Notes: a model not told the origin generated them from the letters alone. 64,000 nt of DNA from an uncultured Planctomycetota bacterium (GCA_963845755.1 CAWJTV010000034.1:224001-288000), one strand, 5' to 3'; counted from the first letter of the stretch, positions 2,432 through 30,798 are shown. Numbers and translations: made by a program.

Positions 2432-2464
2432 CCGGCAGTCCCAGCCTCGGGTATCCTTGCACCC

Positions 2465-3298
2465 ATGACGACGCCTCACGATGAGGCTCCATCGCCGGAG
2501 GACGAGCCAGCCATCAACCCCGCCGTGACCACTCCGCTCGGCGCGGCAACGCCCGTTCGTGCTGGCCGGAAGGACCCGATGGTGTCGCTGACGCGATGGG
2601 AGCCGGAACCCAGCTCGAGGACGTCACGCGACCAGCAACCGGCTCGAGGACGTGAGGAATCCGTAACGGCGCCGCGGTCAGACCCGGCAGGACTGCCGCT
2701 CCGGGCCGGTACCCGCCGGGATCAGTCAGCACACCGTCGCTGCCGGGGAAAGCTTCGCGAGCATCGCCTGGCTCTACTATGGAGCCGAGAGCTATGGCCA
2801 GGCCCTCTGGCAATTCAACCGGGGCAGGATCGCCCGGCCTGATCGCCTGAAAGTTGGAGATCTGCTCGTCGTGCCTCCTGCCGGAGTGCTGAATTCCCCG
2901 CGAGTGAACCACCAACGATCGGCCTCGCCGAACACCCTGGACCACAACCCGATCGCCCGCGCGAATCCAGCAGCATCCGGGCGTCCGAGATCGGCCGGAA
3001 CGACGGGCGGTTGGGTCGAGCAGCCGCGCGGTCGCAATCCCAGCGCCGTCGCGAACGATGCGGCCGCATCCGGTCCGAGGGTGACTCATCCTGGACCTCG
3101 TCCCGAGTCGCGCGTCCACCTGGTTCGGCGCTGACGAGACCCTGCGCAGCATCGCCCGAGATCGGCTGGGGGACGCCCACCGAGCGGACGAGATCCTCCA
3201 GTTGAACCGGGATCGTCTCGACGGCGAGGGCTCGCTCAGACCGGGCCTATTCCTCCGCCTGCCCGACGATGCTCGAACCCAGCGGTCGGTGCCTTGAA
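2465..3298 (+). CDS. Pro-rich linker plus two LysM peptidoglycan-binding domains (frameshifted); likely the C-terminus of the secretin
   Basis: From 2721: [21 protein letters not shown]...[24 protein letters not shown]. From about 3111: [36 protein letters not shown]...[10 protein letters not shown]. Both fit the LysM pattern. ATG 2465 is in the secretin frame. Confidence 0.75.
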
Positions 3299-3723
3299 GC
3301 CTGCCGCGCATCCGAGCCGAGCAGTGCCGCGACTACGACCAAGCTGATTACAGCCCAGCCTGCAACCACCGCGGCCATCACTCTCGAGACCCCGACACGC
3401 TCCCAAAGGTCGCCGGTTCCCATGCCAATCAGCAGCAGGTAGAACGAGGGGAAGAGTAGCGCCGTTGTCAACTCCACGATCGCATATCGTGGTGAAATCC
3501 GACCACGACAGTGCCGGCATCTGCCGGCCAGGAACAGCCACCCCAGAACTGGAATATTGTCGCGTGCACGGATCAGCGCCAGGCAGCGCGGGCATCGCGA
3601 CCTCGGACGAAAGAGACTCATCAACCGGCGAATCCGATATACGCACACGTTCAGAAAGCTGCCGATGCATCCGCCCACGATCAAAAACAGGATCGCGAGT
3701 ACAACATGATGTGAAATAGTCAT
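3247..3723 (-). CDS. Prepilin peptidase A24 N-terminal (Zn-binding) domain protein, short form
   Basis: [15 protein letters not shown]...PRSRCPRC...[31 protein letters not shown] is the PilD N-terminal signature. No GxGD motif follows. Confidence 0.85.
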
Positions 3724-4283
3724 GAGGCTTCCGTTGACTCATGGGTTGCGAGGCGCGGACCGACCACTCCCGTTGAGGCCGATTGATGGTGTGCCCGCCG
3801 TTGTGCCGCGGACGGCTCGATGCGCCCGCTGTGAAGCAGTACCCATTGATAGCACAATAGGACGAGATACAGGCCGAGAAACAGGGGAAGGAAGTATCCC
3901 GCGCGGAATCGGCTGCCGAACATGGGATAATTCTTGTAGACGACGAGGAAGGGGATGCCCGCCGCGGTCATCACGTACTTGCCCAGCAGGAAAGCCGTAT
4001 GTCCATGGGACAGCAGGTAAAGCATGAACGGGTTGCCTTCCTCGCTATTGATCTCGAGCAGTTCGATGGTCAGCAGGCCGTCGACGAGCGTCAAGCCAAG
4101 AATCGCCACGATCATGCCGAGCGTGATCGCATCGAATTGATCGACGAAGAACGCGCCACGACGCTCCTCTTCTCGCCTCGGCCCTCGGCGGCGGCCCCCA
4201 AAGCGGAACGCATCGAGGGGTGACGTGGGATTCTGGCGCCGATCTTCCCGCTTCCGCGATTCTCCATGGGGATTCTCGTTCAT
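3720..4283 (-). CDS. DUF5658-like membrane protein
   Basis: [10 protein letters not shown]...FVDQF, then a TM segment with [11 protein letters not shown]...[11 protein letters not shown]...FLLGKY. 4-nt overlap with the peptidase gene. Confidence 0.7.
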
Positions 4284-4506
4284 GCGCGATGGTGAAGGTA
4301 CGCGCGCACTGGGAGCGCGGTTTCCCAGCGACCAAACCCGAGACACGAACGATCCGTGAGCCCCCGGCACGCTGGTAGGACCGGGGCCGCGTCCACCTGT
4401 TCAATCCAGCCTAGGCCGAGTTCGCAACGAGCGAGCGAGCATGCGTCTGCGCGTTGACGTAGAACAACATTGGCGAGAGGCGATGGTGATGTAAGGGAAG
4501 CAAGGG

Positions 4507-6246
4507 TTACTCTTCTTCGGCCATGGTGACGCTCAAGGCAGCCTCGAGGCTGGTCAGTCCCTGGCGGACCTTATCAAGCGCGCTATCAAAGAGCATCTTC
4601 ATCCCTTCCTCGCGAGCGGCCTTGCGGAGCTGGTCCACAGGGGATCGCTTCTGAATCAGAGAAATGAGCCTGGGAGTGATGCGAATCACCTCGAAAACGC
4701 CGACTCGTCCGCGATAACCCATGCGCCGGCACTGGAGGCATCCCTTGGGGCGGTAGATGGTCTCGCCGAGCGGCAGGCCATGCTGATCGGCCATTTCGGC
4801 ACTGACCTCATAGGGTTCCTTGCAGTGCGTGCAGAGCCGGCGAACCAGCCGCTGAGCCTCCAGCACCCGGAGGGAGCAGGCGAGCAGGAACGGCTCGATG
4901 CCCATGTCCTGAAGTCGGGTCACGGCCGACAGGGCATCGTTCGTGTGGATCGTCGAGAGGACGAAGTGCCCGGTCAGCGCGGCGCGAAGGCAGATCTCGG
5001 CGGTCTCCTGGTCGCGTACCTCGCCGACCATGATAATGTCCGGATCCTGCCGCAGGAACGCCCGCAGGGCCGACTGGAAGGTCAACCCGACCGGGGCTTT
5101 GACCTGCACCTGGTTCATCCCCTTGAACTTGTACTCCACCGGGTCCTCGACCGTGCAGATATTGACCTTCGCATCGTTGAGCTGGTTGAGGCACGAATAC
5201 AGCGTAGTTGACTTGCCGCTTCCGGTCGGGCCGGTTACCAGCGCCAGGCCGTATGGCGAGTGGATCGACTCGATCAGGTCGGTCAACTGCCGCTCGTCCA
5301 GGCCCAGGCCGGTCAGATTCAGGGGGATCGCGCCTTTGTCCAGGATTCGCATGACCATCTTCTCGCCATGGACCGTCGGGACCGTATTGACGCGAAGGTC
5401 GATCCGCTTGTCGCCCGTCCGCAGCGCGATCGCGCCGTCCTGAGGAATCCGCTTCTCGGCGATATCCATCTTCGCGAGCACTTTCAACCGGGAGATGATC
5501 ATGATGAACACGGTCTTCGACGGCGACGGGAGTTCGTGCAGCACGCCGTCGATTCGGAGCCGGAACTTGCAGCCGTCTTCGAATGGCTCGAGGTGAATGT
5601 CGCTGGCTCCGTTGCGTAGCGCCTGCTCGAGGATCTGATTGACCATGCGGACGATCCGGCCGTTGGCGTCCGCGGTGGGCGTGGCGTCGAGGTTGAGGAT
5701 GTTCTCATTGTCGTCGCCCTCCTCACCCTCGATCACGTCGAAGCCCTCGCTCCCCTCGCCGATGCCCTTGGTGTGCTGATCGGTCCGATAGAGGAGGTCG
5801 AGCTGACTCTGCACGACCGATAGGGGCGCGATGATCGGGTTGATCCGCAGCCCGGTCATGAGCTCGAGCTCGTCCACGACCCCCATCTCCTCGGGGGAGA
5901 CGAACGCGACGTCGAGCACGTTGTCCCGGACCGCCATCGGGCAGATCAGCCGATCGATGCAGAGTTTCTCCGGAACCAGGCTGCCGATCTCCTTATCGAC
6001 CACGCCGGCTTCGATATTGTTGCGGATCACCGGCAGGAACAGGTCCTCGGCATAGAGGTTGGTGATCTCTTGCTCGGAGATGTGGCCGGCACGGATCAGG
6101 GCCACCTCGGACAAGGTCCCGGACCCGGCTTTGCGGAGCGTCTCCTCGATCTGGTCGAGCTGTTTCGCTGTGAACCAGTTGCGTCGCGCCAGCAGCTCCA
6201 GGACCAGAGGTTGCGTTTCTGTTTCTTTGTAGAGGGTGGCCATCAC
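4507..6246 (-). CDS. pilB: Pilus assembly ATPase, PilB/GspE family
   Basis: ASDIHLEP, RIPQDG, Walker A GPTGSGKSTT, TVEDPVEY, LRQDPDIIMVGEVRD, ALTGHFVLSTIHTND, CxxC...CxxC, GYRGRVGVFEV. Confidence 0.96.
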   Translation of the reverse strand: MMATLYKETETQPLVLELLARRNWFTAKQLDQIEETLRKAGSGTLSEVALIRAGHISEQEITNLYAEDLFLPVIRNNIEAGVVDKEIGSLVPEKLCIDRLICPMAVRDNVLDVAFVSPEEMGVVDELELMTGLRINPIIAPLSVVQSQLDLLYRTDQHTKGIGEGSEGFDVIEGEEGDDNENILNLDATPTADANGRIVRMVNQILEQALRNGASDIHLEPFEDGCKFRLRIDGVLHELPSPSKTVFIMIISRLKVLAKMDIAEKRIPQDGAIALRTGDKRIDLRVNTVPTVHGEKMVMRILDKGAIPLNLTGLGLDERQLTDLIESIHSPYGLALVTGPTGSGKSTTLYSCLNQLNDAKVNICTVEDPVEYKFKGMNQVQVKAPVGLTFQSALRAFLRQDPDIIMVGEVRDQETAEICLRAALTGHFVLSTIHTNDALSAVTRLQDMGIEPFLLACSLRVLEAQRLVRRLCTHCKEPYEVSAEMADQHGLPLGETIYRPKGCLQCRRMGYRGRVGVFEVIRITPRLISLIQKRSPVDQLRKAAREEGMKMLFDSALDKVRQGLTSLEAALSVTMAEEE

Positions 6247-6270
6247 GGTTCGCCAACGGTGTTGAGGATG

Positions 6271-6385
6271 GGATCTAGGATCTCAGATTCAATATTCCCG
6301 ATTCAAGATTCAAAATGATGAAGTTTCAAGAATTCGGTCTCTGACGTGTGGAAAACTTCGCGTTTTGCGATGGGGCCGCGTCAGG
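6271..6385. repeat. Heptamer (GATYNNN) array with GCCGCGTCAG end; dispersed repeat copy A
   Basis: ggatctaggatctcagattcaatattcccgattcaagattcaa ... ttgcgatggggccgcgtcagg. Confidence 0.55.
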
Positions 6386-7139
6386 GATCGGCGGCAGGGG
6401 TTGTTGCTGAGTCGGCACGTGACGTCGGAGCACGGCGCCCCCGCGATGAGGGGGCTTTCCCCGACATGAGATCGGTCAGGTCCGACTTTCCGACGATGCT
6501 CCGTCCCAATGCGCCCAGCGGTGACTTGAGCAGCTTCTGGATCACGGCGAGCTGGCCGGACGGGTCGAGCATCGTCGCCTCCGGAGACCCGGCAATGCCC
6601 GGCCTCGGTGCCGCGGGGCGATTGCCGAGCTGATCCGGATAACTCAGCACGTAGTTCCGGTTATTTCCCCTCAGGATGACTCTCGACGGCAGGACAACGG
6701 TTAGCAACAACTGCGAGGAGGGATCTTGGGAGTCGTTCCGGAATCGAAGAGGTTGACCCCTTGAGTAGATCCGGCCGTCGATAATCGCGATCTGGTCGCG
6801 ACCTTGGAAAAACGTGGCTTCCAGCGTCATCTGCCGAACGAGATCGGCCAGTGGATCGGATGGGGGATCGGAAGGGAGGCTGGCCTGCGATTGGGACGCG
6901 TCTGCCGACGGGCTCGTCACGTGGCTGACCTGGAACGGGTCGCGAAACTCTCCGATCAGCCGTTCCGCCGTTTCGGTGCCGGATTCCAGCATGCCTTCCA
7001 TCACCTCCAGGCCCTTCTCCACGTCGGACCGGCCCGTTGCCCGCTTGGGAAGACTCTCATGGAGTGAGTAGCTGGAGTACCCGAGAAAGACGATCAGGAT
7101 GAGCGTCGGTGCCAGCTTCAACAGCTTCGCGGTGTTCAT
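6381..7139 (-). CDS. Pilus/T2SS accessory protein (PilP/GspB-like position)
   Basis: N-terminal TM, RDPF motif and LEATFFQGRDQIAIIDGRIY beta domain; located between pilO and pilB. Confidence 0.6.
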   Translation of the reverse strand: MNTAKLLKLAPTLILIVFLGYSSYSLHESLPKRATGRSDVEKGLEVMEGMLESGTETAERLIGEFRDPFQVSHVTSPSADASQSQASLPSDPPSDPLADLVRQMTLEATFFQGRDQIAIIDGRIYSRGQPLRFRNDSQDPSSQLLLTVVLPSRVILRGNNRNYVLSYPDQLGNRPAAPRPGIAGSPEATMLDPSGQLAVIQKLLKSPLGALGRSIVGKSDLTDLMSGKAPSSRGRRAPTSRADSATTPAADP

Positions 7140-7181
7140 TGGAGAGGGGTCCCGTTACGAGGGCGGCTCCCGGGAGCTTCT

Positions 7182-7764
7182 TCAGCGCCGGCCTGCCTCG
7201 GACTGGGCCTTCGCGCCGGTCGCCGACTTTTCGGTCAGGCTGACGAGGGTGACCTGGACGTTGAGACGCCTGGGGTCCGTGTGGTTCGGGGCGAGTTGGA
7301 TCGAGTCAATTCGCAACAGCCGCCGGTCGGTTTCAACCCAGTTCAGAAACGCATCGATGTCGGTGAAGTGTCCGTCCATCGTCAAGCGAAGGCCGATCGC
7401 CCGATAGGGACCGAGGCCCTTGGAACCTTCGGGTTTCAGGTCGATCAGCCTCAGAGGGGATGACCGAATGTGATCGATCACGCGCCGCATCAGTTCGTTG
7501 GCGTCGGCCCCGCCCGAGATGAGGCCCTGGTAGGGTGCCAGGCTCTTCCGGAGCTGCTCGACCTCGCGCGCCGTCGCGAGTCGCTTGCGCTCCCTGATCG
7601 ATCCGCGCCGTCGTGGTGATCATCTGTTCGTTTAAGGGTATGAAGTACATCACATACCATCCAGCGATGATCGCAATGCAGAGGACGACCCGGAGCTTCA
7701 GGGGATGACTGAGCTGTTCCAGGATGATCCGCTTGTAGCCGGACTTCGAGGACGGCTGGCTCAT
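7182..7764 (-). CDS. PilO-like pilus alignment protein (frameshift near 7590)
   Basis: N-terminal TM and coiled coil (ORF 7333..7764) joined to LTMDGHFTDIDAFLNWVETDRRLLRIDSIQL (ORF 7182..7490). Confidence 0.75.
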
Positions 7765-7914
7765 GGCCTCAGTTCCCTCGGCGGCAGAGAGTGGGCAGCA
7801 GGCACTGACGACATTACAGGTTCGGTCACTTCCGGGTTGGTCTCGTCCTCAGGGTGGTTCAGGTCCAGGTTGGCCGGGTGGCACCCGGCGTGCCCAACCC
7901 GATCGCGAGCCGCT

Positions 7915-9431
7915 CTACCGTGCTCCGCCGGCTTTGGATTCCATCTTCGGCAGGCAGATGACGGTATAAGACGCGAAAGGATGGCCTTTCTGAACGGCCG
8001 GATTGGACCGCAGGCCGGAGACCTCGATGAGGGGGAAATTCCGCTTGAGCGACGGATCCTTGCAGCGCAGCCAGGAAGCCGTCGATCTCGCTCGGCAACG
8101 ACCCGTCATCGGCCATCGGCGTCGCAAAGTTCATGGTCAGTTGTTTCTTGGTGGTGGTCGGAGTTGACTTGGAGCCGATCTCCAGGGTGGCCGTTCCCGA
8201 CATCGAAGTAATCACCGTGTTTTCGGGCGCGGCCGTGGCGATGGACCGGAGTGGGACGGACCAGGCGATACGACTGTTCTGAAACAGATCGAGCGACTGG
8301 GAACGATCCTGGAGTGCCTTCTTCTCAACATCGAGCTTCTTCTGGTCCCAGTCTTTCAGCCAGGAGAACGCTTTGAGTTGGATCCCGACCTCGTTGAGCT
8401 GAACTTCGGCTTCTGCCGCCGTCCCGTTCAGGAAGAGCGAGACGGCACCGAGCAGGGCGCCTTGGACGGCAAGCTCCCCCCAGGGAAAGATCTCGCGGAG
8501 CGTGGGGGAGGGCTTGAGCGTTCGCGACAGATCGAGCCCCGACTCGTCTTCGAGGGGGCTGGCCAGGGCGACTCCGAGCGCGGCCGAAGCCGCATCGTAG
8601 TTCGGCTCGGCGCAGCGAATTAACCGTGTCGCCGGTGCGCTGTTGGAACGCCTCAGGTCGCTGCGTCAGGACGACTTCCGGGCGGCCGTGTAGTATCATG
8701 GTATCGATCGGCAGAGGAATCCGGCAGTTCCGCCAGAGCATCCAGAGGGTCGAGTAGGCGGCCAGGACCGCGACCGTCTCCTCGCCGGGGGTCAGATCGA
8801 ATGTGTGCCAGAAGAGGGGCTGCGATCCCGCGGCCAGCACGCCGATCGCCTGGTGGGGACCGAGGAAGATCCGCACGCACAACACGGAGCCGCGGGGCGG
8901 CTTGCGGTGATACGCGCCGGCACGGTACAGCGCGGCGGGGACCGGCTCGGCCAGTCCGACGCGCGTACCCAATCCGCCCATCATCCCGACCAACGACTCG
9001 ATCGCCCCGCGCGGGGAAGCCGCCACGCAGGCTAGGGGTTGCTTGTTGAGCTCAAGCTTGAGCAACTCGATGATCCGTTCTTCGGACCGGATGTTGGTCG
9101 CCTGCACGGCCTCGAGGAAATAGGTCTGCGGGGGCGCGTTGCGATTGGCTTGGGTGATGGGCACCACGGCCTGGAAGACTTGCGACTCGGGCACACCCAG
9201 TTGGACCCAGGGACCAGCCTCGGCCTGCCGGCCCCGTCGCGACTTGATCCACGGTCCCATGACGCGCTCCAGGACCTCCTGCGCGGACTCGCCTTCGCAG
9301 GACTGGACGTCGCGGAAGACCTGGCGCCGGCTGAGCGGCGTTGCCGACACGATGGAAATGGCGATCCGCCGTTCCTCGATCACCAGCCCGATGGACCGCC
9401 GGACGGCGCATCGCGATAAGAGTGACTTCAT
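7915..9431 (-). CDS. PilM-PilN-like fusion protein (frameshifts near 8635 and 8060)
   Basis: SIGLVIEERRIAI (actin-fold start), EPVPAAL and AALGVAL, then GLDLSRTL, a TM, a coiled coil and WSVPLRSIATAAPENTVITSM, typical of PilN, in one reconstructed frame. Confidence 0.7.
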
Positions 9432-9487
9432 GGTCGGTTGGCTCTCGGTTTTCGGGCCCGGCCCTCCGGCTGGACCTGTCCTCCGGA

Positions 9488-9630
9488 GGATCTCCGCGCC
9501 GCGCACACCTTGCGGATTCGAGATTCTCAATCCCAGATTCGCGATTCCGTCGCGTGACGCGTTTCCCCAACTGGCATCCGGAATCGGAAATCCGGAATCC
9601 TGGTTGGGTTGCAGCCGAAGGCCGCGTGAG
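9488..9630. repeat. Hairpin-plus-heptamer dispersed repeat copy B, downstream of the major pilin
   Basis: GATTC-type heptamers facing GAATC-type heptamers, ending ttgcagccgaaggccgcgtgag. Confidence 0.7.
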
Positions 9631-9755
9631 CACTCGATCAAATAGCGGCGGGCGACCGCAACCGGCCGCCCGCACAAAGGTCAGGTCCACAACAACCTGT
9701 GAGCCCGGGGACGACGATGCCGCCCGCCGGTTCTCGCCATCACGCGATGCGGCGA

Positions 9756-10232
9756 TCAGGAGCCGCTGCTGCTGGAGCTGCCACTCGCGCTGACCGTGAC
9801 CGGGCAGATCTGCGGGAAGGTCATGATCGTCGAGGTGGACGAAGAGTCAAACCCGGTCTGCGTCCAGTTGACGGTATAAGCGTAGCTCGAGTTCGCATTC
9901 CGTGTGAGCATCAGCGACCACGTCGGGTTCCCGGCACTGTCGGCTGTCACCGTGATGGTGCTCGGGACGGTGAAATACTGGGGCGCGGGAAGGTTGACAT
10001 CGAGCGAACTGATCGTGCTGGCGTAGACGCCGTTCTGGGCCAGGTACCGCTCCTCGGCGGACTGGATGGCCGAGAGGTAATTGAAGGATTCCGCCGCCTT
10101 CGATTTCTCCACGGACTGGAGGAAGCGGGGGACGCCGAAGGCAGCCAGAACGCCGATGATGACGATCACGACCGCGAGTTCGACGAGGGTGAACCCTTTG
10201 CGGGTTCGCTGGCGTGAGACGAATCTGTGCAT
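9756..10232 (-). CDS. pilA: Major type IV pilin
   Basis: Class III signal RKG|FTLVELAVVIVIIGVLAAFGVPRF; KAAESFNYLSAIQSAEERY; Ser/Thr-rich C-terminus. Confidence 0.9.
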   Translation of the reverse strand: MHRFVSRQRTRKGFTLVELAVVIVIIGVLAAFGVPRFLQSVEKSKAAESFNYLSAIQSAEERYLAQNGVYASTISSLDVNLPAPQYFTVPSTITVTADSAGNPTWSLMLTRNANSSYAYTVNWTQTGFDSSSTSTIMTFPQICPVTVSASGSSSSSGS

Positions 10233-10780
10233 GGTCTTTGGCTCTCTCTCGTTACTTGATCCGAATCCAGGTAATCAACCGACAGAAACTGATTCTTCAG
10301 GTTCTTCTACCCCGGCCGAGCTGACTTCAGCCGGGAGACGAACACGGCGGATGGGTGGGGCATTCGCCGGGGACAGACCTGACAACCTTCACTGTCCTCG
10401 ATTGTCCCGGGCAACGATTTTTCCGACTTGCAAGCCCTGCCCATGTGGAGAGGCGACGTCGCCCTGCGGTCGCATGCCGCCGGTGACACTCAACGCTAGT
10501 TCAAATCCAGCCTTCGTCAAATCCGTGCGTGATACGCTGGCTGACCCATCGACTCGGCTCCGGGTCGCGAGTTGATCGAATTCAACATGGTTGCACGCCG
10601 GTGGAGAAATCGGGCCTAGAGTTGAACGAAGAGAGGGAGAGAATCCGACCCCAGTACCGGATGGCCGCGGAGTGTTGACGGGGCGGAACTCGCGTCCTCC
10701 CGGGTTGGCGAAGCCGGTGGTTCGCCTTCCCTTCCAGTCGACAGCGGTAGGTCTCAGAGGGCGCTCCGTCGCGACCAATT

Positions 10781-10883
10781 AGACATCTCAGATTACGCGT
10801 TTCCGGTGTGGATTCAGCTTTCGTGGGTCCCTTCGTCTTAGAATCGGGGATCTGGAATCTCGTTGCGGCGCCAGCCGCGTGAG
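10781..10883. repeat. Degenerate hairpin-plus-heptamer repeat copy C, directly upstream of pilC
   Basis: gaatcggggatctggaatctcgttgcggcgccagccgcgtgag. Confidence 0.5.
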
Positions 10884-10893
10884 GGGGTGGAAC

Positions 10894-11988
10894 GTGCCGT
10901 TCGAAGAGTGGGTCGTCTCACACGCGAAGATTTCGACCAAACCCCACCGGTCCGCCAAGATGGAAGATACACTGACCTTCTTCCACCAGCTCTCGACCCT
11001 GGTCGGCTCGGGGACCCCCTTGCTCCAGGCCCTCAAGATCGCAACGGCGCAATGCGAGAGCATCAAGCTACGGGAGGTCCTGGGTGAGATCGTCTCGAAG
11101 GTGTCGGCCGGCAGCAGCTTCCACTCGGCGGCTGCCGCCTTTCCTCAGGTCTTCGAATTCTCGTGGCTCGAGGCAATCCGAACCGGCGAAGTGACGGGAA
11201 AGATGGCCTCGGTGCTCACCGAGCTCAGCAAACAGATCCGCGAGACGCGCGAGACCAAGCGGAAGGTCAAGGGCGCCCTGATGTACCCCGTGATCCTGAT
11301 TTCGGTGGCCGTGATCGCCGTGACCCTCATGCTCTGGCTCGTCGTGCCGGTCTTCGCCAAGATGTTCAAGGACATGGATGCCCAGCTTCCCGGCATCACC
11401 CAGTTCGTGGTAGACATGTCGAACTACATCGTCCAGTACGGCATCTACGGCGTGATTGCGATCGGCGCCGCGATCTACGGTTTCAAGCGGTTCCTCAATA
11501 CCGAGTCCGGGCGCCGGTATGTCGGCGGCACGCTCATGATCCTCCCCACGGTAGGTCAACTGATGGTCGAGATGGCGATGTACCGCTTCGCCTCGAACCT
11601 CTCGCTGCTCCTCAAGAGCGGCGTGCCCATGATGGAGACGATCAACACGGTCCAGGGCATCTTCCAGAACAGCCCAATTTACCGCGATGCCCTCGCGCGG
11701 GTCGCCGCCCGGGTCGCGGCGGGCAAGCCGCTCAACGCCGCGCTCCAGGAGACCGGATTGTTCCTCCCCATGCTGATTAGCATGGTCCAGGTCGGCGAGG
11801 AATCGGGCCAACTGCCCGCGGTGATGGAGCAGATCGCCCCGTTCTACAAGGAGAAGATGGAGACCATGATCTTGAAGGTCACAAAAATGTTGGAGCCCAT
11901 GACAATCATGTTCATGGGTACGTCGATTGCGGGGATGATGCTGGCGATCTACATGCCGATGTTCGAGATGGCGGGCAGCGTGAAATGA
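10894..11988 (+). CDS. pilC: Inner-membrane platform protein, PilC/GspF family
   Basis: FFHQLSTLVGSGTPLLQAL, GEVTG, KVKGALMYP, LLKSGVP, MVQVGEESGQL, LEP, AIYMPMF. GTG 10894 follows a GAGGGGG RBS; alternative start 10879. Confidence 0.95.
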   Translation: MPFEEWVVSHAKISTKPHRSAKMEDTLTFFHQLSTLVGSGTPLLQALKIATAQCESIKLREVLGEIVSKVSAGSSFHSAAAAFPQVFEFSWLEAIRTGEVTGKMASVLTELSKQIRETRETKRKVKGALMYPVILISVAVIAVTLMLWLVVPVFAKMFKDMDAQLPGITQFVVDMSNYIVQYGIYGVIAIGAAIYGFKRFLNTESGRRYVGGTLMILPTVGQLMVEMAMYRFASNLSLLLKSGVPMMETINTVQGIFQNSPIYRDALARVAARVAAGKPLNAALQETGLFLPMLISMVQVGEESGQLPAVMEQIAPFYKEKMETMILKVTKMLEPMTIMFMGTSIAGMMLAIYMPMFEMAGSVK

Positions 11989-12073
11989 GACCGGTCGTGC
12001 GACATCGCCCCGGGCCCATTCAGGGAGCGGGGCGCGTTCCACGATCGAACGATTCCGCGGCGGAGATCCGAGA

Positions 12074-12576
12074 ATGACGAAGAGAATATCGAAACAACAG
12101 GCCATGGTGATGGACGGCACGACCGCGGTGACTGCGGCGCTGCCGAGCTCCGCCCGGATCGGGAGGGGGGGAAGCTCGCTCGTCGAGATGATCATCACCA
12201 TCCTGGTGCTTGGAGTGCTGCTGTCGATGGGGGTCCCCCAGTTCGCGCAGTCACTGGAGCAGTCGTGCGCGAACGTCGCCGGGGCCAACCTGCGCGCATC
12301 TGGTCGGCCCAGCGGCTCTACTGGCTGCAGAATCGCACATATTCACCCGACCTGAACACGCTCTTGACCGCGAATTTAATCGACCCGTCCCTCACCACGG
12401 CGACCGCGCCCTATACTTACGCCATGTCCAACTCCAGCAGTAGCACGTTCACCGCGACGGCGACCCGCGCCGGCTCGTCGACGTGGTCGGGCAGCTACAC
12501 GATCATCCAGGACGGGACGTTCTCCGGGACCGTCCAGTCGGGTTCGAGCGTCACCATCGAGCCGGGGTTCCAATGA
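12074..12576 (+). CDS. Minor pilin (frameshift near 12295)
   Basis: RGG|SSLVEMIITILVLGVLLSMGVPQF...ANLRA/IWSAQRLYWLQNRTY; resembles the major pilin. Confidence 0.8.
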
Positions 12577-13154
12577 GACCGATGAGATCGGTTCCTGGCC
12601 TTGCCTCTACGGTCCTGCCCGATGGCCGAGGACGGCCCAGAGATCGCCGGTCCTGGCCTCGCCGCGGCTCCGCGTTGCTCGAGGTCCAGATGGCCTTCGC
12701 GATCCTGGGGATCGGTCTGGCGGGGCTCTGCCCGTTCGTCGTGATGCGACTCCGGCAGATCCGCCAGCTCGAACAAGGGTTGCAGGGGCAGGTGATCAAC
12801 AGCCGCGTGGGTGAGGCGATGTGGACGAGCCTGGGCACGGACCGGCGCCAGGGCCAGACCTACTATCTCGTCCCGTGGCAGAACCCGTGGACCCGGAAGC
12901 TCGCCGGCAGCTCAGATCGTCGCCTGGTCCCCCGACCCAGTCGTGGTGGGACGCCTTGACGTGAAACTGGCCGGCATGCTCAGATCGTCGCCTACACGGA
13001 CACGATTCCCAATCCGCCCACCATCCCCTGCGATCCGGGCCCGCTGTCGAACCCATTATCGATCAGCGCATCGAATACCGTGACGATCGTCGAATTGGAT
13101 GCCTCGCCCGGGAGCCAGAACGTGACCGTCTACGTGAACGTCACCGGCCTGTGA
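12573..13154 (+). CDS. Minor pilin, PilV-like (disrupted near 12910-12990)
   Basis: RRG|SALLEVQMAFAILGIGLAGL prepilin motif; ATGA overlap with the upstream gene. Confidence 0.7.
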
Positions 13155-13203
13155 TCCGAGACGACGACCTCAGACGCCCCTCTTGGCGACGACGAAGCAG
13201 GAC

Positions 13204-13741
13204 ATGATGCGACCGTATCGATCCCCCATTCGCTACCGTCGCGGCTTTTCCCTGACCGAGCTGGTGGTGGCCGCCGTGCTGGCCACCTTGCTCATGAGCT
13301 TGATGGCGATATCCTGGGTGGCCTTCGGTTCGACCGGCCCTGGAGGTCGAGGCCCGTGCCCGGATCGCGCAGGAGGGCGTACTCGCCACTCAATCGATCG
13401 CCTGCGACCTCGGCGGCTTCCTGGCCGACTCGCCCGGACAAACCGGCAACCTGGCCCAGTATCAGTTCGTCGACTGGAACCTCTCCAATAGTGGTGTCTT
13501 CCTCCTGAACTTCCAGGGGGCGAACGTGGGAGACACCATCGTCATCACCTATCAGGTCTCGGGGAACGAGCTCGTTCGGTCCAACTCATCCACCGGCGTA
13601 TCCACGACCATCGCCAAGTACGTGACGGCCTTTTCCGTCGTCTCGAATCCGGACAATTCCAGCCAGGCGTTGATCCAGATCACGATCGCCTTCCGTTATT
13701 TCTCGGCAACCTATACCTTGATCGGTGTACCACCCTCATGA
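13204..13741 (+). CDS. Minor pilin, PilW-like (frameshift at 13328-13334)
   Basis: RRG|FSLTELVVAAVLATLL. Removing one T at 13329 joins it to the ORF 13526..13741 frame. Confidence 0.8.
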
Positions 13742-14163
13742 TCGGACCCGCCCCCGTCCGCCCGCGCAGGGGTTACTCCCTGACGGTCGTGCTCATCTTT
13801 CTGATCCTCCTCTTCGCCCTGTGGAGCGCGGCCTCCCGCACATCCTCCAGCTTGCTCAGGATCGAGACGAACCAGGTCCTGCAAGAGACCCGCGACCAGG
13901 GTGCCATGAACGCCCTGGCTCAAGCCGTCCAGTTGCTGCAATATAGCACGCCCTCGGATTCGTCGGACCCCGAGCGCACCCAGTACACTTACGGCGTCCA
14001 AGTGACGGTTACCAGTGCCTCGGGAGCATGTACGACTTCTGACTACACGATTGTCTATACCGCCCCGCCGAATAAGTACCCGTCGAGCTGGGAGATTCAG
14101 GTGTCTGCCGGGTATTACAGCGTCCCGCTGCCCACTCCGGGTGCCAGTCCCCAATGGCCCTGA
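13738..14163 (+). CDS. Minor pilin, PilX/GspK-like
   Basis: RRG|YSLTVVLIFLILLFAL lacks Glu5, as is typical of PilX/GspK; last gene of the pilin run. Confidence 0.75.
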   Translation: MIGPAPVRPRRGYSLTVVLIFLILLFALWSAASRTSSSLLRIETNQVLQETRDQGAMNALAQAVQLLQYSTPSDSSDPERTQYTYGVQVTVTSASGACTTSDYTIVYTAPPNKYPSSWEIQVSAGYYSVPLPTPGASPQWP

Positions 14164-15951: not shown

Positions 15952-15990
15952 TTCACCGCGATGCTCGTCAGGAATTGACCGGAATGAAGT

Positions 15991-16838
15991 TCAGCGGGTG
16001 ATCGTGATGGACGTCGAGGTCGACGTCTCGCCGACACGACGTTTTCCCGAGTGTGGCGCGGCGGCGACCCGACCTTGCGGCTTGCCGACTCTCCCCCCAT
16101 AGGTCCAGCGGATGGCCGCAAGTCCGAAGGCCGCCTTCAGCCAGTTGAACGGGCCTGAGCTTGGAACCGGCGACGTCGTTCCACTCGTGGAGCGGAAACT
16201 CGTAGATCGCCTGTTCGATCGCAGGTCGTCCCGTCCCGCGGCGGGCGGCGATCGCCCGGGCGACGATCTCGACATCGAAGATCCACCGGCTGCGGAAGGG
16301 CTTCTCGAAGAACGCCTTGACCTCGGGCGTGGCGCGGAACAGCTTTGCCCCACATTGCGTATCATAGAAGTGCACCCCCAGGGCGAGGGAGGCAGCCGTC
16401 GCGAATGCCCGACCGAGATAATGACGAATGGGTTTGCGCGTGACGGCCCGACCGTGCAAGCAGACCCGTGCGCCGAATACCATGTCGATGTCGGGCCGGA
16501 AGTCCAGGATCGAACAAAACGTCCGGATGGCCGCCAGGGGAGTCGCGAGGTCGGCGTCCCAGTAGCCCACATAATCGGGCCGATCGTCGAAGGCTCTAAG
16601 GAGGCCCTGGCGGACAGCCTCGGCCTTGCCGGCATTCTGTCGCAGGTGGCAGACCAGGAAGCGTTCGCGAGCTTCGCGATGCAGCTCGTCGAGCAGATTC
16701 CGGGTTCCGTCCGTGCTCCCGTCGTTGAACGAAGAGGAATCGTGGGTCAGGGTGCTCCTGTGCGAAGTCCCGCAATGCGCGCAGGTCGAGCCTCTTCGCT
16801 TCGTTGTAACAAGGAACGACGACGATCGCCCGTGACAT
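15991..16838 (-). CDS. GT2 polyprenyl-phosphate sugar synthase (DPM/DPG-synthase-like); frameshifts at about 16727 and 16147
   Basis: VVVPCYNE, V(N/D)DGSTD, NAGKAEAVRQG, YWDADLATP, YDTQCGAKLF, WIFDVEI. Confidence 0.9.
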
Positions 16839-16933
16839 GATGATGACCTCAACGAATATCGGCGAATGTTCCCGGCGGAAGGAATCCCACCGGACTCCCG
16901 AACGATGCCGGGATCGGAGAACCGAGCCGCCTC

Positions 16934-22609: not shown

Positions 22610-22638
22610 TTGACAAGCGGGAGTTCCAGCCGTATGAT
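22610..22638 (+). promoter_or_regulatory. Sigma70-type promoter
   Basis: TTGACA (22610-22615), 17 bp spacer, TATGAT (22633-22638), immediately 5' of the riboswitch. Confidence 0.8.
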
Positions 22639-22652
22639 CTCGGATGCTTCGG

Positions 22653-22850
22653 GTGCGGGTGGCCGAGCGTCGCGGTCTGCGACGGCCGGCAAACAGGGAA
22701 TCCGGTGTGAATCCGGAACGGTCCCGCCGCTGTAACCGAGCGTCCAAGGGCTCCGCCCCTCTTTTGCCATTGTCGCGCCGGCCTGGAAGCAGGCTGGACC
22801 GATGAGAAGGCCGGGAGCCCCAGCTCGGAAGTCAGAAGACCTACCCCCAC
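22653..22850 (+). ncRNA. Cobalamin (B12) riboswitch
   Basis: AACAGGGAATCCGGTGTGAATCCGGAACGGTCCCGCCGCTGTAA, GCCATTG...GAGAAGG, B12-box-like AAGTCAGAAGACCTACC; 22653-22662 pairs with 22841-22850. Confidence 0.92.
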
Positions 22851-23011
22851 CGACGTCGGTGCGACTCCGCGAGGGACGGAGAGCCCGGACCAAACCCCTC
22901 ACCACGAGGAGCCGGAATCGGCGTCGCGACGCGGATCGATGCACCCCCCTGCCCCGTACCGGGCGGGGTGCTCGGCACGATGTGCGCCGCGTCTCGCCCG
23001 CTGGTAGATCC

Positions 23012-23237
23012 ATGAATGGGAACACGATCGGTCGTTCGCGCACGCGCTGGTTCAGCGCCTCGATGAGTTCTGGCCTGATGCTGATCGCCCTCGCATTGGG
23101 GGGCTGCGGCAACTCGTCCGACGTGATGGAGATCCCCGAAGGCGCACGCACGTCGGCGCTCCAGAAGAAGGTCGATGTCCAGCCACGAGCCGTGAAGTCA
23201 TCGAAGCCCGGACAGCGGCCCGCCGAACGGCCGTTGA
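23012..23237 (+). CDS. Small lipoprotein (3' end uncertain; a frameshift is likely near 23215-23235)
   Basis: GLMLIALALGGC lipobox; first gene after the riboswitch. The uncorrected frame runs on to 23548, into the next gene. Confidence 0.6.
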
Positions 23238-23297
23238 CCGAGGTGCCGCTCCAGCAACCCCGGATCCTCACCAATCGCAAGATCGAGAGAACTTCTG

Positions 23298-24520
23298 ATG
23301 AACATGCAGCGATGTTCCGTTCCAGACCGATGGACGGGCGACTTCCTGGACAGTCATCGGGCACTGCGCGATCGAGCGCATCGTCCGCGCACCGGCTTCA
23401 CCCTGATCGAGCTGCTGGTGGTGATCGCGATCATCGCCGTCCTGATTGCCCTGCTGTTACCGGCCGTGCAGGCGGCGCGCGAGGCTGCCCGCCGTGCCCA
23501 GTGCGTGAACAACCTGAAGCAGCTTTCCCTGGCACTTTCCAATTATGAGAGCGCCAATGGGATCTATGCCTACGGCATGGCGCGGGAGAGCTGTGGGCCG
23601 AACTGCGCGTTCTCTGCCCCCAACAGTTATTATGTCGGCAGCAGCCTGTTCGTTCGGATGCTCCCCTTCATCGAGCAGCAGGCGCTGGCCAACGCTTACA
23701 ACTATAGCCTGATCAACTGGACGGCCGACAACGGTACGGCCGGCGGGACGGGGCTGGCGGCCCTCTGGTGCCCCAGCGACGGGTCGATCGCCGGCTTGAG
23801 GTCCACGTTCGCCGGCTGGGGCTGGGACGGCTCGACGCAGACCCTGGTTTACACCAGCTACGCGGGCAACATGGGGACGTTCTGCAAGGTCCCGATCTCG
23901 ATCACATCGCCGGCGCAGCATCAGGCCGTGTTGAACCAGGCCAACGGCCTGTTCTTCTACCTCGGCTGGCCGGATTGGAATCCCCCGCGCAGCCCGACCC
24001 GATCACTCCGCTGAACCCCGGCAGCGTCCGGCCCGCGACGCTAGCCTCGATCACCGACGGGCTCAGCAACACCTTCGCCTTTGGCGAGAAGGCTCATGGC
24101 AAGTTCAGCCAGGTTCCCGACATCTATTATTCGATCGACTACTATTACTACGGTGCCTGGGTCTCCGGCGGCTTCGGCGACACGCTGTTCACCACGCTCT
24201 ATCCCATGAACCCATTCAACCGGATCGGCGACGATCCTAACGGCGATTTCTTCTACAGCTTCGACGCCCAGGAGGACAACTTCTCCATCGCCGCGTCGAG
24301 CTTCCATCCCGGCGGCTGCAATTTCGCATTCCTCGACGGCTCGGTCCACTTCGTCAAGGAGACGATCAATACCTGGCCATACAGCCCGACCAACGGGGCA
24401 CCGACGAACGTGAGCTATAACGCGGCGACGGGCCTCTTCACGGCCGGCCCCCCATCGGGAGTTTACCAGTCACTCTCGACGCGAGCCGGGAGTGAGATCG
24501 TGAGCGCGGATCAGTATTGA
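23298..24520 (+). CDS. DUF1559 prepilin-type protein with H-X9-DG C-terminal motif (frameshift near 23985)
   Basis: [80 protein letters not shown]. Confidence 0.93.
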
Positions 24521-24610: not shown

Positions 24611-25276
24611 TCAGCTTTCTGGCGTGAGGCCCAGTACGATGTCGAACTTCGCGGCGAGTTCGCCGATCCGCGACCCTTTGACCGGCACGAAGTCCACGGG
24701 GAGCATCTGGCCGCCCTTGGCCTGAGTGGCGCGGCGGTAGATGTTGTCCTTCTCGTTGCCGGCATGACCCTTGACGAAGCACTCGGTGGTGAGCAGTTCC
24801 TTCCGGCCCTTCCAGATCTTGAAATGGATGTGCGCGGCCGGCCGGCCGGTATACGGCACCGGCTTGATGGTCCGGAAGTAATACTCCCCGGTCGAACCGG
24901 TGAGGAACCGTCCGAAACCCTGGAAGTTGGTATCGAACTTGGCCTGGTCGTCGATGTGCGGCTTGAGGTAATTCCCGTCGCGGTCGCACTGCCAGAGCTC
25001 AACGACGGCGTTGCGGATCGGGTCGCCATGCGTGTCGAGGATGCGACCGCTCAGGTGCGTGACCGCTCCCACGGCGGGGGTGATGCCGTCGTTGATGATG
25101 AGCAGGTCGTTATCAGTATCGAGCGGCAGCTTGGTCGGGTAGTACGGCCCCTCCTGGATACGAGGCGTACGGGTCAACTCCTCGGCGAAGGCGCCTCGGG
25201 TCGTGAAAGCCGCGGTGCCGAGCGCGAGGGTGCCGAGGAAGGCGCGCCGACTGGGAAGCGTGATGGCGTCGTTCAT
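24611..25276 (-). CDS. Tat-exported intradiol ring-cleavage dioxygenase family protein
   Basis: SRRAFL Tat motif; EGPYYP, VELWQCDRDGNY, FRTIKPVPYTGRPAAHIHFK. Confidence 0.88.
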   Translation of the reverse strand: MNDAITLPSRRAFLGTLALGTAAFTTRGAFAEELTRTPRIQEGPYYPTKLPLDTDNDLLIINDGITPAVGAVTHLSGRILDTHGDPIRNAVVELWQCDRDGNYLKPHIDDQAKFDTNFQGFGRFLTGSTGEYYFRTIKPVPYTGRPAAHIHFKIWKGRKELLTTECFVKGHAGNEKDNIYRRATQAKGGQMLPVDFVPVKGSRIGELAAKFDIVLGLTPES

Positions 25277-28285: not shown

Positions 28286-30541
28286 TCAGGGGATATAGAT
28301 AAATTCATTCATGCCGACGAGGGCCTGGCAGAAATCGACGAGTGCCCGCCGGTCCGGATCCGGCCGGCCGTCGCGGGCATAGGCCGCGCGCTGGGCGGCG
28401 AGGAACGCAGCGGCGAGCCGGGACTCGGTTACGGTCGGCTCGCGGCCGAAGGCGATCCGATAGGCCCGCGTCACGGCGGATGCCGGATCGCCGCCGTCTG
28501 CAATTCGTCCCGCGAATCCCTCGGCGCAATGCCGGGCTAGCCCGCTGTTGAGCATCGCCAGGGCCTGGGGTGCCGTCGTCGTCGTGCTCCTCTGGCCGAT
28601 GCTCACGAGGTGCTCGGGCCAGTCGAAAAGCATCATCATCGGGATGAGCCGGCTCCGCTTGATGAAGAAATAAACGCTCCGGCGCGGCATTTCCAGGTCG
28701 AGCACGCCCGATCCGTACATCCGTCGGTCCAATCGTCCAGCGACGGCCAGCATCGCGTCGCGTATCGGCTCGGCCTCGAGTCGGCGCGGTGTGTGTCGCC
28801 ACCGGAACACATTCTCGCGATCGATGGCTGCGCGCGATTCGTCGTGCCGGCTGTCCTGCATGTAGACGGCACTCGTCACAATCAGTCGATGAATGGGCTT
28901 CAGCCGCCAACCGTTGGCGATTACAGCGTTCGCGAGCCAGTCGAGAAGCTCGGGGTGGGACGGCCGGCTCCCCTGCGCCCGAAATCGTTGGGTGTGGCGA
29001 CGATCCCCTGGCCGAAGTGGTACTGCCAGAGCCGGTTGACGATCACCCGCGCGGCGAGTTGGCCGGCCCCGTACTCGGTATCCGTGAGCCATCCGGCGAG
29101 CGCCGCGCGTCGGTAGCTGGTCGGATGTGCGTGTGCGACCGTCGGCTCGACCTTCCAGCGCGCGGGATTCGTCCTCTCGCCTAGCAGGATCCGGAGCACC
29201 CCAGGCGTCGCCTCGCTCACCTTCTGGGCGACATCGCCCCGGCGCAGGATGTACGTCTTGGGATAGAAGTGAGGGAATCCGCGATCGTCGGCATGGTGCT
29301 TCGTATGTGGGTAGCCCTCGGCGGTGACCTGCACCTTCACGGGCTTGACGCCGGGACCGGACGCGACCTCGATCTCGCTACGGATGGTGGTCGTGAACGC
29401 GGCGGCAATCCGGTAGTAGTCTTCGGAGGAGATCGGGTCGAACTTGTGATCGTGGCATCGCGCCAGCCGACCGAGAGGCCCAGGAACGCGACGCCGGTCG
29501 TCGCGACCATGTCGTCGAGCTCGTTATACCGGGCCGATTCGAATTCGGCCTCGGTTAACTGCGTCGGAAACGCGCCGGCGCCAGGAACCCGGTCGCGGCC
29601 ATGGCCAGTGGGTCATCAGGCGCCAGCTCGTCACCCGCGAGTTGCCAGTGGACGAGCTGGTCGTAAGGCATGTCTTCGTTGAAGGCGCGGATCAAGAAGT
29701 CGCGATAGTGGAAGGCGAACGGCCGATCGTAGTCCTGCTCGTAGCCGTGCGACTCGGCAAACCGGGCCACGTCCATCCAGTGGCAGGCGAAGCGTTCTCC
29801 GTGATCGGGCGACGCCAGCAAGCGATCGACGAGGCGCTCATAGGCATCGGGCGCCGGATCGTTGACGAAAGCGTCGATCTCTGCGGGAGACGGAGGCAAG
29901 CCGGTCAGGTCGAAGGCGACGCGTCGGATCAAGGTGCGTCGGTCGGCGCTGGAATTCGGCTTGAGACCGCGACGCTCCAGCGCGGCGAGGATGAAGCGGT
30001 CGACGGGCGTGCGGACCCAGTCCGTGCTGCGCACCGAGGGGGTCGAAACGACGGCCAACGGCCGGAACGACCAGAAGTCCTTGTTGGGCTGAGTGGGTCC
30101 TCCCATCGCGCCCGCCGTGGGAGCCCGATCCACGAGCGGCCGGTCATACGGGGCGCCGAGGTCGATCCATCGGGAGATCTCGGCGATCGTGGTATCGGGA
30201 AGCTTCGCGCCCTTCTGGGGCATGTGCGGATCTTCATCGTGCCGGATCAGCGCGGCGAGCCGGCTCTCCTTGCCGCCTCCTTCGAGCACGCCGCTTTCGA
30301 CGAGGGGCTTGCGGTCCGAGAGGTCCAGTCCGCCCTTCTTCGCCTTGCTGCCGTGGCAGTCGAGGCAGTGCTCGATGAGCACGGGTCGGACCTTCGCCTT
30401 GAACACCGCGAGCCCCTGCTGCATTTTCTGGGCATGGTCCGGCGGTACGCGACTCGGCGTGTCGTCCGCTTCCAGCGAAGGCGCCAGCCCCATCAGGCTG
30501 AGGACCAGGACGGTGAGGCCAGGCGGGATTCGGATTCTCAT
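28286..30541 (-). CDS. Planctomycete cytochrome c / DUF1549 / DUF1553 protein (several frameshifts)
   Basis: CLDCH heme motif, [74 protein letters not shown]. Confidence 0.9.
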
Positions 30542-30798
30542 GGCGGATGTTCGGTTCCTGTCCGGATGGGGGACTCGACGCATCGCGGCGCTTCTCATCA
30601 GTCCGCGCGATCTCTCGTTCCCATTGTCTGAAGGACTGGTGCCGATTCCTAGTCCTCTTCGGCCGCGGACGATCAGGGGGGGAGTCCGGACACCCGCTCC
30701 CAGTGTTCCGCGCGGATTCGTCGCCCACGCCTTCGCGCCATGTCTCGCCGGTCGGACGCACCTCGTGGCGACCGAGGTGCAGCTTACTCAGAGTCTTC

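Follow-up and report, generated by a model that had tools for sequence, protein, structure and literature searches.

The DNA analysed here, hereafter the window, is a stretch of 64,000 nucleotides from an uncultured planctomycete that appears, from the source names of its close homologs, to belong to the family Isosphaeraceae. Between positions 22610 and 24520 it contains a short unit in which a promoter-like site and a cobalamin riboswitch precede a small lipoprotein gene and a prepilin-like gene of the DUF1559 family:

22610..22638, plus strand, sigma70-type promoter-like site TTGACA-17-TATGAT (11 of 12 consensus matches)
22640..22862, plus strand, cobalamin riboswitch aptamer RF00174, long form (Rfam covariance model)
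22865..22881, plus strand, P13-like hairpin with loop GAGGGA, able to pair with L5 TCCCGC (22722-22727)
23012..23237 (probable true end; 23548 as assembled), plus strand, small lipoprotein with lipobox LGGC and Cys32 at 23105
23298..23984, plus strand, 5' half of the DUF1559 prepilin-like gene, class III signal G/FTLIE (slash at the cleavage site) with its Gly at 23394
23982..23986, plus strand, one-base frameshift at a C5 run, one base short relative to orthologs
23984..24520, plus strand, 3' half of the DUF1559 gene, H-X9-DG motif at 24305-24340

The next gene is convergent (24611-25276, intradiol dioxygenase family) and neither btuB nor btuF lies in the two-gene unit, both as stated in a preliminary description of this locus made from its sequence.

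The leader is as that description had proposed, with a near-consensus sigma70 promoter followed by a cobalamin riboswitch. Sites of the TTGACA-17-TATGAT type occur once against 0.4 expected in shuffled sequence, and a similar site is conserved 5' of the aptamer in 27 of 30 rows (the window and 29 orthologous riboswitch loci), the hexamers being kept while the spacer between them varies. The Rfam check returned RF00174 at 73.5 bits against a gathering threshold of 31.5 (E 3e-16, model positions 1-189), the sole RNA family that Rfam detects in the 64-kb window, and the position is that of a 5' leader (promoter ending at 22638, aptamer at 22640-22862, same-strand ATG at 23012). A kissing loop between L5 and L13 is the regulatory layout of the cobalamin riboswitch class. 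Between the loop of the hairpin at 22865-22881 and its partner, which we take to be P13 and L5 in riboswitch nomenclature, five of six pairs are possible in 25 of the 27 rows parsed and four of six in two (three of the 30 rows were unparsed), a count that describes pairing potential and not compensatory change. No intrinsic terminator was detected in the leader, and the whole leader folded no better than shuffles (z -0.8).

The small lipoprotein described 3' of the riboswitch is likewise present. Its signal, read from the sequence and not with a signal-peptide predictor, consists of a basic n-region, a hydrophobic h-region and the lipobox LALGGC, a layout common to 26 of the 30 orthologous loci; a motif search also finds E-[IL]-P-E-x-A-[RK]-K-x-L-x-x-K-K-V-D at 26 of the 30. 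The gene is single copy and has no paralog in the genome, no Pfam or NCBIfam model matches it, and an Atlas search gave only unnamed matches below 0.9. In the window the ORF extends to 23548, but the lipoproteins of the 26 motif-positive orthologous loci have a mature part of ~37-61 residues, so that a second frameshift probably lies in this gene and the true stop at 23235-23237.

The DUF1559 gene exceeds the cut-offs for the prepilin motif (PF07963, 34.4 bits versus 21.2), for DUF1559 itself (PF07596, 78.5 and 50.8 bits versus 23.3) and for the H-X9-DG motif (TIGR04294, 40.1 bits versus 19), and the protein has a class III prepilin signal with a G/F cleavage site and E5. The N-terminus resembles GspG/PulG, and the corresponding equivalog model (TIGR01710) scored 39.1 and 41.2 bits, below its cut-off of 88.85. 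The type IV prepilin signal and the H-X9-DG tail of the preliminary description are therefore real features, but the single intact gene that it assumed is not present in the assembly, where the frameshift at 23982-23986 splits the gene into one ORF at 23298-24014 and another that corresponds to the 3' part of 23768-24520. Orthologs, including one from a genome of the same genus, have one more base in this C5 run, and the reading frame, discontinuous in the window assembly, is continuous in most of them. The frameshift near 23984 is most likely an assembly error, judging from the sequence, because rpoB and rpoC are likewise split; metH is also split in this genome, which is 88% complete and frameshifted and whose ~138 DUF1559 loci comprise 81 intact, 35 split and 22 partial copies. 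Whether the unit is a true pseudogene in this strain is a separate question. Two apparent frameshifts inside 1 kb speak for it, but it is quite improbable given that rpoB and rpoC are split too, that 35 of the 116 full-length DUF1559 loci are split, that the break falls in a homopolymer run, that the two halves still share 84% and 87% identity with an intact ortholog, and that the promoter and riboswitch are intact. Elsewhere in the window, two genes that we take from their translations to be a glycosyltransferase-like gene (15968-16852) and a planctomycete cytochrome/DUF1549-1553-like gene (28286-30598) are apparently frameshifted.

The association between riboswitch and DUF1559 gene was surveyed in both directions. 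In the class-level survey of 41 family and class genomes, 38 have a cobalamin riboswitch, and 57 riboswitches besides the window's were found, of which 55 were usable after two with fewer than 300 bases downstream were left out. The preliminary description had suggested looking for DUF1559 enrichment after riboswitches, and a Pfam-confirmed DUF1559 gene indeed lies at most 2 kb downstream of 38 of the 55 (in 30 of the 38 genomes), although these and the other linkage counts come from related genomes and hence are not independent. The remaining 17, where annotated, lead CobN, MetE/ribonucleotide reductase, DUF6580/BtuF, PEP-CTERM-like, DUF4465 or BtuB-like receptor genes (the last in G026 and G036). 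Both cobalamin riboswitches of the window's genome lead DUF1559 genes, and a riboswitch lies upstream of only 2 of its ~138 DUF1559 loci. The second (L003, G000:C43:105433-105620, minus strand) precedes a frameshifted DUF1559 gene of subfamily A (subfamilies as defined below), then two PEP-CTERM genes, the first of them with DUF4465. As a control, all three TPP riboswitches over the cut-off lead not DUF1559 but a protein that is presumably ThiC-like; this control is small, with TPP candidates in 4 of the 41 genomes and three over the cut-off, all in one family.

Beyond the class the association thins out. A phylum-wide draw of 121 genomes gave 109 loci (in most cases the top-scoring riboswitch of a genome, and 29 of them with at most 1.5 kb downstream), in which DUF1559 is linked at 2 of 5 loci inside the class and at 11 of 104 outside it (8 of 70 among loci with at least 3.5 kb); 47 of the 79 out-of-class genomes tested lack any PF07596 match, and one genome (G157) has three riboswitches and no DUF1559 gene in the downstream DNA retrieved. 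A TonB-dependent receptor gene lies 3' of the riboswitch at 24 loci (22 in the phylum draw, 2 in the class), and at none of these does the DNA retrieved contain a DUF1559 gene.

Several other arrangements were observed in these surveys. At L003 there is also a gene homologous to an unnamed secreted family whose members stand first or second in other B12 operons (L083, L043, L077). At L041 (G021:C4:474915, minus strand), a gene for a PepSY-TM membrane protein comes after a riboswitch-linked DUF1559 gene that belongs to none of subfamilies A-C. Divergent riboswitch pairs occur at L046 and L036 (G001:C4, G021:C5), one member leading DUF1559 and the other MetE and class I ribonucleotide reductase, and a third riboswitch in G001 leads an acyl-ACP desaturase-like gene. 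Outside the class, the genes after the riboswitch encode one or two secreted proteins whose tails are of PEP-CTERM or dockerin-like type, and then a subfamily B pilin (L155, L168, L183, L144, L165, L190). TPP riboswitches are rare among the relatives (4 of 41, candidates scored only in part) in comparison with cobalamin riboswitches (38 of 41).

In the reverse direction, 121 family genomes were searched with the intact ortholog as query, which returned a distinct group at 68-100% identity. RF00174 lies upstream of 29 of these 30 orthologous loci, four of the 29 having already been in the class-level survey; absence of the linkage in relatives, which the preliminary description had named as grounds for refutation, is thus not what was found. 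The exception, G158, has the lipoprotein and the pilin and no riboswitch in 14 kb, and has either lost its riboswitch or never had one. Three sister proteins (L311-L313; 55% identity) have no riboswitch in 1.7-2.8 kb upstream and branch outside the window's subfamily with strong support. For a second DUF1559 subfamily (80 loci, five of them too short), a riboswitch was found at 65 of the 75 loci with enough upstream DNA and not at 10, using an nhmmer profile which gave the same calls as Rfam at the 30 orthologous loci and whose training set overlaps at least 5 of the 80. The link between riboswitch and DUF1559 is strong in both directions.

The riboswitch-linked proteins do not form one lineage. 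In a FastTree analysis of 40 linked proteins and 71 intact paralogs from the window's genome (unrooted, with long-branch warnings), the linked state required 6 label changes as opposed to 33 in shuffles. Three subfamilies were distinguished. Subfamily A (12 rows) goes with DUF4465, B (19 rows) goes with btuFCD/DUF6580 or PEP-CTERM genes and reaches other classes, and C (4 rows) is the window's; five further linked rows lie outside A-C. The clade monophyly that the preliminary description proposed to check does not hold, and a single origin was rejected, since the linked DUF1559 proteins occupy at least three clades and an AU test on a 35-row subset rejected a single clade (p=0.0005); a grouping of subfamilies A plus C, a hypothesis chosen after inspection of the tree, gave p 0.003. 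Subfamily C is nested among riboswitch-less paralogs and, because it has its own lipoprotein and a riboswitch-less sister group, its sequences suggest that it was recruited separately, although in an unrooted tree repeated gain of the riboswitch is not fully separable from loss. The presence of at least three clades would fit repeated recruitment of interchangeable modules, in line with the swappable uptake modules of the preliminary description, and not one dedicated B12 ortholog. Aromatic enrichment (0.16 versus 0.11 in paralogs) was considered as a mark of a B12 site and rejected, with values of 0.14-0.15 in the riboswitch-less sister group and low values in subfamily A. Because that sister group is equally aromatic-rich, B12 specificity appears to be marked by no sequence feature.

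Most of the orthologous units seem to stand alone, according to a rough ORF list spanning ~1 kb, and only 2 of the 30 were seen with B12 genes in the unit. One of these (G015) reads riboswitch-lipoprotein-DUF1559-BtuF-like-DUF71-DUF6580, and the other (G162) riboswitch-lipoprotein-DUF1559-bluB-cobQ-cobA-like-cobT-cobS-cobU-btuF/C/D-like-cbiB, its ABC genes and cobA scoring below equivalog cut-offs. Among the 38 linked loci of the class, at least 17 include DUF4465 (11) or BtuF/BtuC/DUF6580 (6) genes, subfamily A being followed by DUF4465/PEP-CTERM genes at 11 loci. The preliminary description had proposed capture of corrinoid or cobalt; the corrinoid half is supported by these btuF, btuFCD and salvage neighbours, and the same operon context, as far as gene order can indicate, speaks against the cobalt half.

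Two side observations concern these operons. The cobinamide-salvage operon of G162 terminates in an incomplete copy, the 3' portion, of another DUF1559 gene of subfamily C (L308, G162:C392, 12895-13467), which suggests that the cob/btu block either inserted into the pilin gene or was duplicated together with it. A gene for a DUF71/diphthamide-synthase-like ATP pyrophosphatase recurs with BtuF and DUF6580 in B12-riboswitch operons (L080, L039, L042, L048, L076), and its product possibly has a role in corrinoid salvage.

The B12 gene repertoire was surveyed in the 31 genomes with the window's subfamily. No match to the TonB-dependent barrel (PF00593) was found in any of the 31, nine of them of high quality, with positive controls, nor in 25 genomes of family f1 (a set that overlaps the 31) or three of family f4, and the genomes without a match reach up to 16 Mb. 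Matches to cobQ occur in only 3 of the 31, to DUF6580 in 28 and to the BtuF family in 24; these genomes therefore seem to need external B12 and to have candidate inner-membrane steps, with no known outer-membrane step found. The window's genome encodes metH, and neither BtuF nor CobN was found in it at 88% completeness and with its frameshifts. A TonB-dependent barrel is encoded elsewhere in 8 of the 30 class genomes with a linked DUF1559 gene, so substitution of DUF1559 for BtuB is not strict.

The intact ortholog was modelled with a pLDDT of 91.7, the model comprising an N-terminal helix (residues 4-55), a loop-rich insertion of ~250 residues, and terminal beta-strands carrying the H-X9-DG motif, whose His and Asp are invariant. 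In a wide VIA structure search 19 of the 20 rows are pilins, aligned over the helix and terminal strands with a best Z of only 3.9 (PilA4, rmsd 3.3, 116 aligned; ComP, Z 3.3), and Foldseek gave no match at E<=0.001. Neither search matched the insertion to a solved structure, B12-binding or otherwise, and a B12-binding fold is possible nonetheless; folded alone the insertion gave a poor model (pLDDT 57), and it probably needs the pilin core in order to fold. The genome encodes prepilin peptidases, PilC/GspF and secretins. The window also contains a type IV pilus/type II secretion cluster at 551-14163, several genes of which are apparently frameshifted and which includes a prepilin-peptidase-like fragment, a PilM-like gene and minor pilins in addition to the following:

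551-2431, plus strand, secretin
4507-6246, minus strand, PilB-like ATPase
9756-10232, minus strand, major pilin
10879-11988, plus strand, PilC

A functional link between the unit and this cluster, 8 kb upstream, was considered and rejected, no secretin having been found near the riboswitch in five of five relatives (some on short contigs).

We propose, with a probability of roughly 0.6, that the riboswitch-headed lipoprotein and DUF1559 unit serves to capture corrinoids at the envelope for uptake, and that it is turned on under B12 scarcity, in planctomycetes where BtuB was not found. The riboswitch argues for B12 regulation, operon position and the missing receptor argue for an uptake role, and the fold is the one ground for filament transport. 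Adenosylcobalamin (AdoCbl) would repress the unit through the L5-L13 kissing loop, a prepilin peptidase would process the DUF1559 protein, and the insertion would bind a corrinoid or a corrinoid-loaded partner. Either a type IV filament/secretin machine or anchoring in the inner membrane would then allow the corrinoid to be handed to BtuF/BtuCD or to the DUF6580 membrane protein, so that the pilin-like capture protein would take the position of BtuB, and the lipoprotein may be a subfamily-specific helper.

The same gene arrangements can be read in other ways. The pilin-like protein could serve a type II secretion-like machine as an adaptor that exports or presents surface B12 binders (DUF4465, PEP-CTERM or dockerin-tailed proteins) and itself carries no B12, as would suit the 11 loci where subfamily A precedes DUF4465/PEP-CTERM genes, the pilins that come after PEP-CTERM-like genes outside the class, the N-terminal resemblance to GspG/PulG, and the 67 pulG-like pseudopilin homologs of a verrucomicrobium for which type II secretion was suggested for enzyme export (accessible text of PMC13274419). 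We consider this unlikely, because no secreted binder lies in the unit of the window's subfamily, other linked operons (G015, G162, G111, G021) combine the pilin solely with uptake genes of the periplasm or inner membrane, and the score stays below the GspG equivalog cut-off (39 versus 89 bits). Regulation by B12 could also have a purpose other than uptake (a B12-independent substitute, adhesion to B12 producers or envelope remodelling), or the gene could lie behind the riboswitch through inheritance alone. The unit is mostly alone, MetE and class I ribonucleotide reductase are also under B12 riboswitches in the same genomes, and DUF1559 paralogs respond to general stress (PMC2754498, accessible part); even so, such readings seem rather improbable, since inheritance alone does not account for three subfamilies in one regulon or for retention at 29 of 30 loci, no enzyme fold appears among the structural matches, and a leading position in btuFCD operons favours transport.

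It is very unlikely that the unit captures cobalt or another metal for corrin synthesis or salvage and not whole corrinoids. Cobalt transporters are also found under cobalamin riboswitches (PMC2667541, in the accessible text), in several relatives a riboswitch precedes CobN-family genes, in one case (G029) with the CobN-family gene immediately 3' of DUF1559, and the invariant His and Asp of H-X9-DG could be counted in its favour, but that motif marks the whole family (TIGR04294) and not the window's subfamily, and the neighbours are corrinoid-handling genes. Free cobalt would moreover be of little use, because no cobQ match was found in 28 of the 31 subfamily genomes and no CobN match in the window's genome.

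Corrinoid capture by this unit might be one instance of something broader, a TonB-independent, type IV filament-based import of B12 in planctomycetes in which a single machine would accept interchangeable DUF1559 pilins as substrate adaptors, recruitment to B12 having occurred on three or more occasions and each of the hundred-plus paralogs per genome importing a different nutrient. We offer this tentatively, as more probably wrong than right; if true, this planctomycete lineage would have a general mechanism of uptake across the outer membrane in place of TonB-dependent receptors. The question addressed is how Isosphaeraceae-type planctomycetes with no detectable TonB-dependent receptor move large nutrients across the outer membrane. 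With a riboswitch to indicate which ligand, which condition and which gene are involved, a DUF1559 role becomes directly testable, and the separate recruitments together with a near sister group that lacks the switch provide a built-in specificity control.

A transport role has already been guessed for the family, in the NCBI name 'DUF1559 family PulG-like putative transporter' and in the label 'solute binding' (PMC2754498, accessible part). In the accessible portions of four reports (PMC10632474, PMC8567305, PMC2754498, PMC4807772), DUF1559 figures as an expanded family with a prepilin signal and no known function, and in the first of these it is the largest paralog group of Planctopirus limnophila (68 copies, two essential). 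A cobalamin riboswitch is noted in Thermogutta, with no target given in the accessible text (PMC5673643), and in that of PMC13274419 a pseudopilin is induced on alginate and one pulG-like homolog lies in an alginate cluster. DUF4465 proteins bind B12 across phyla, with Mucisphaera and Coraliomargarita among the examples, and pilins are not mentioned in the accessible part of the accompanying neighbourhood analysis (10.1101/2025.08.21.671476). No paper on a riboswitch-DUF1559 link was found in the main texts of the accessible literature, and the papers found give no DUF1559 substrate or regulator. What is new here is the stand-alone subfamily, which has a lipoprotein of its own and a sister group lacking the riboswitch, together with the salvage operon of G162 and the finding that the linked proteins are not a single clade.

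Compared with known systems, the unit resembles the E. coli-type btuB leader and BtuB-TonB plus BtuFCD pathway in placing a cobalamin riboswitch before an envelope gene, and in relatives it is the DUF1559 gene that holds the first position before btuF/btuCD-like genes. The regulated product in the window is, however, a prepilin-type protein and not a beta-barrel, and no TonB-dependent barrel was found in its genome. BtuG, BtuH and BtuJ (DUF4465) of Bacteroides are likewise riboswitch-controlled accessory capture proteins, but they work with BtuB, whereas the window's proteins have no match to PF14717 (DUF4465) or another B12 binder, and DUF4465 genes go with a different DUF1559 subfamily, also at the genome's second riboswitch. 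With type IV filament uptake systems such as competence pili and their DNA-binding minor pilin ComP, the unit has a predicted pilin scaffold in common and, putatively, substrate capture; here the cargo would be a vitamin, the pilin has an insertion of ~250 residues, and in relatives the riboswitch-linked pilin gene lies apart from assembly genes. The Akkermansia MUL2 pilin-like locus belongs to the same comparison and is tied mainly to attachment (PMC13174399, accessible text). Within the DUF1559/SBP_bac_10 (PF07596), H-X9-DG (TIGR04294) family, the window's protein is a full member by all three profile cut-offs, and its subfamily differs from the wider family in being tied by a riboswitch to a named ligand and in having a lipoprotein of its own.
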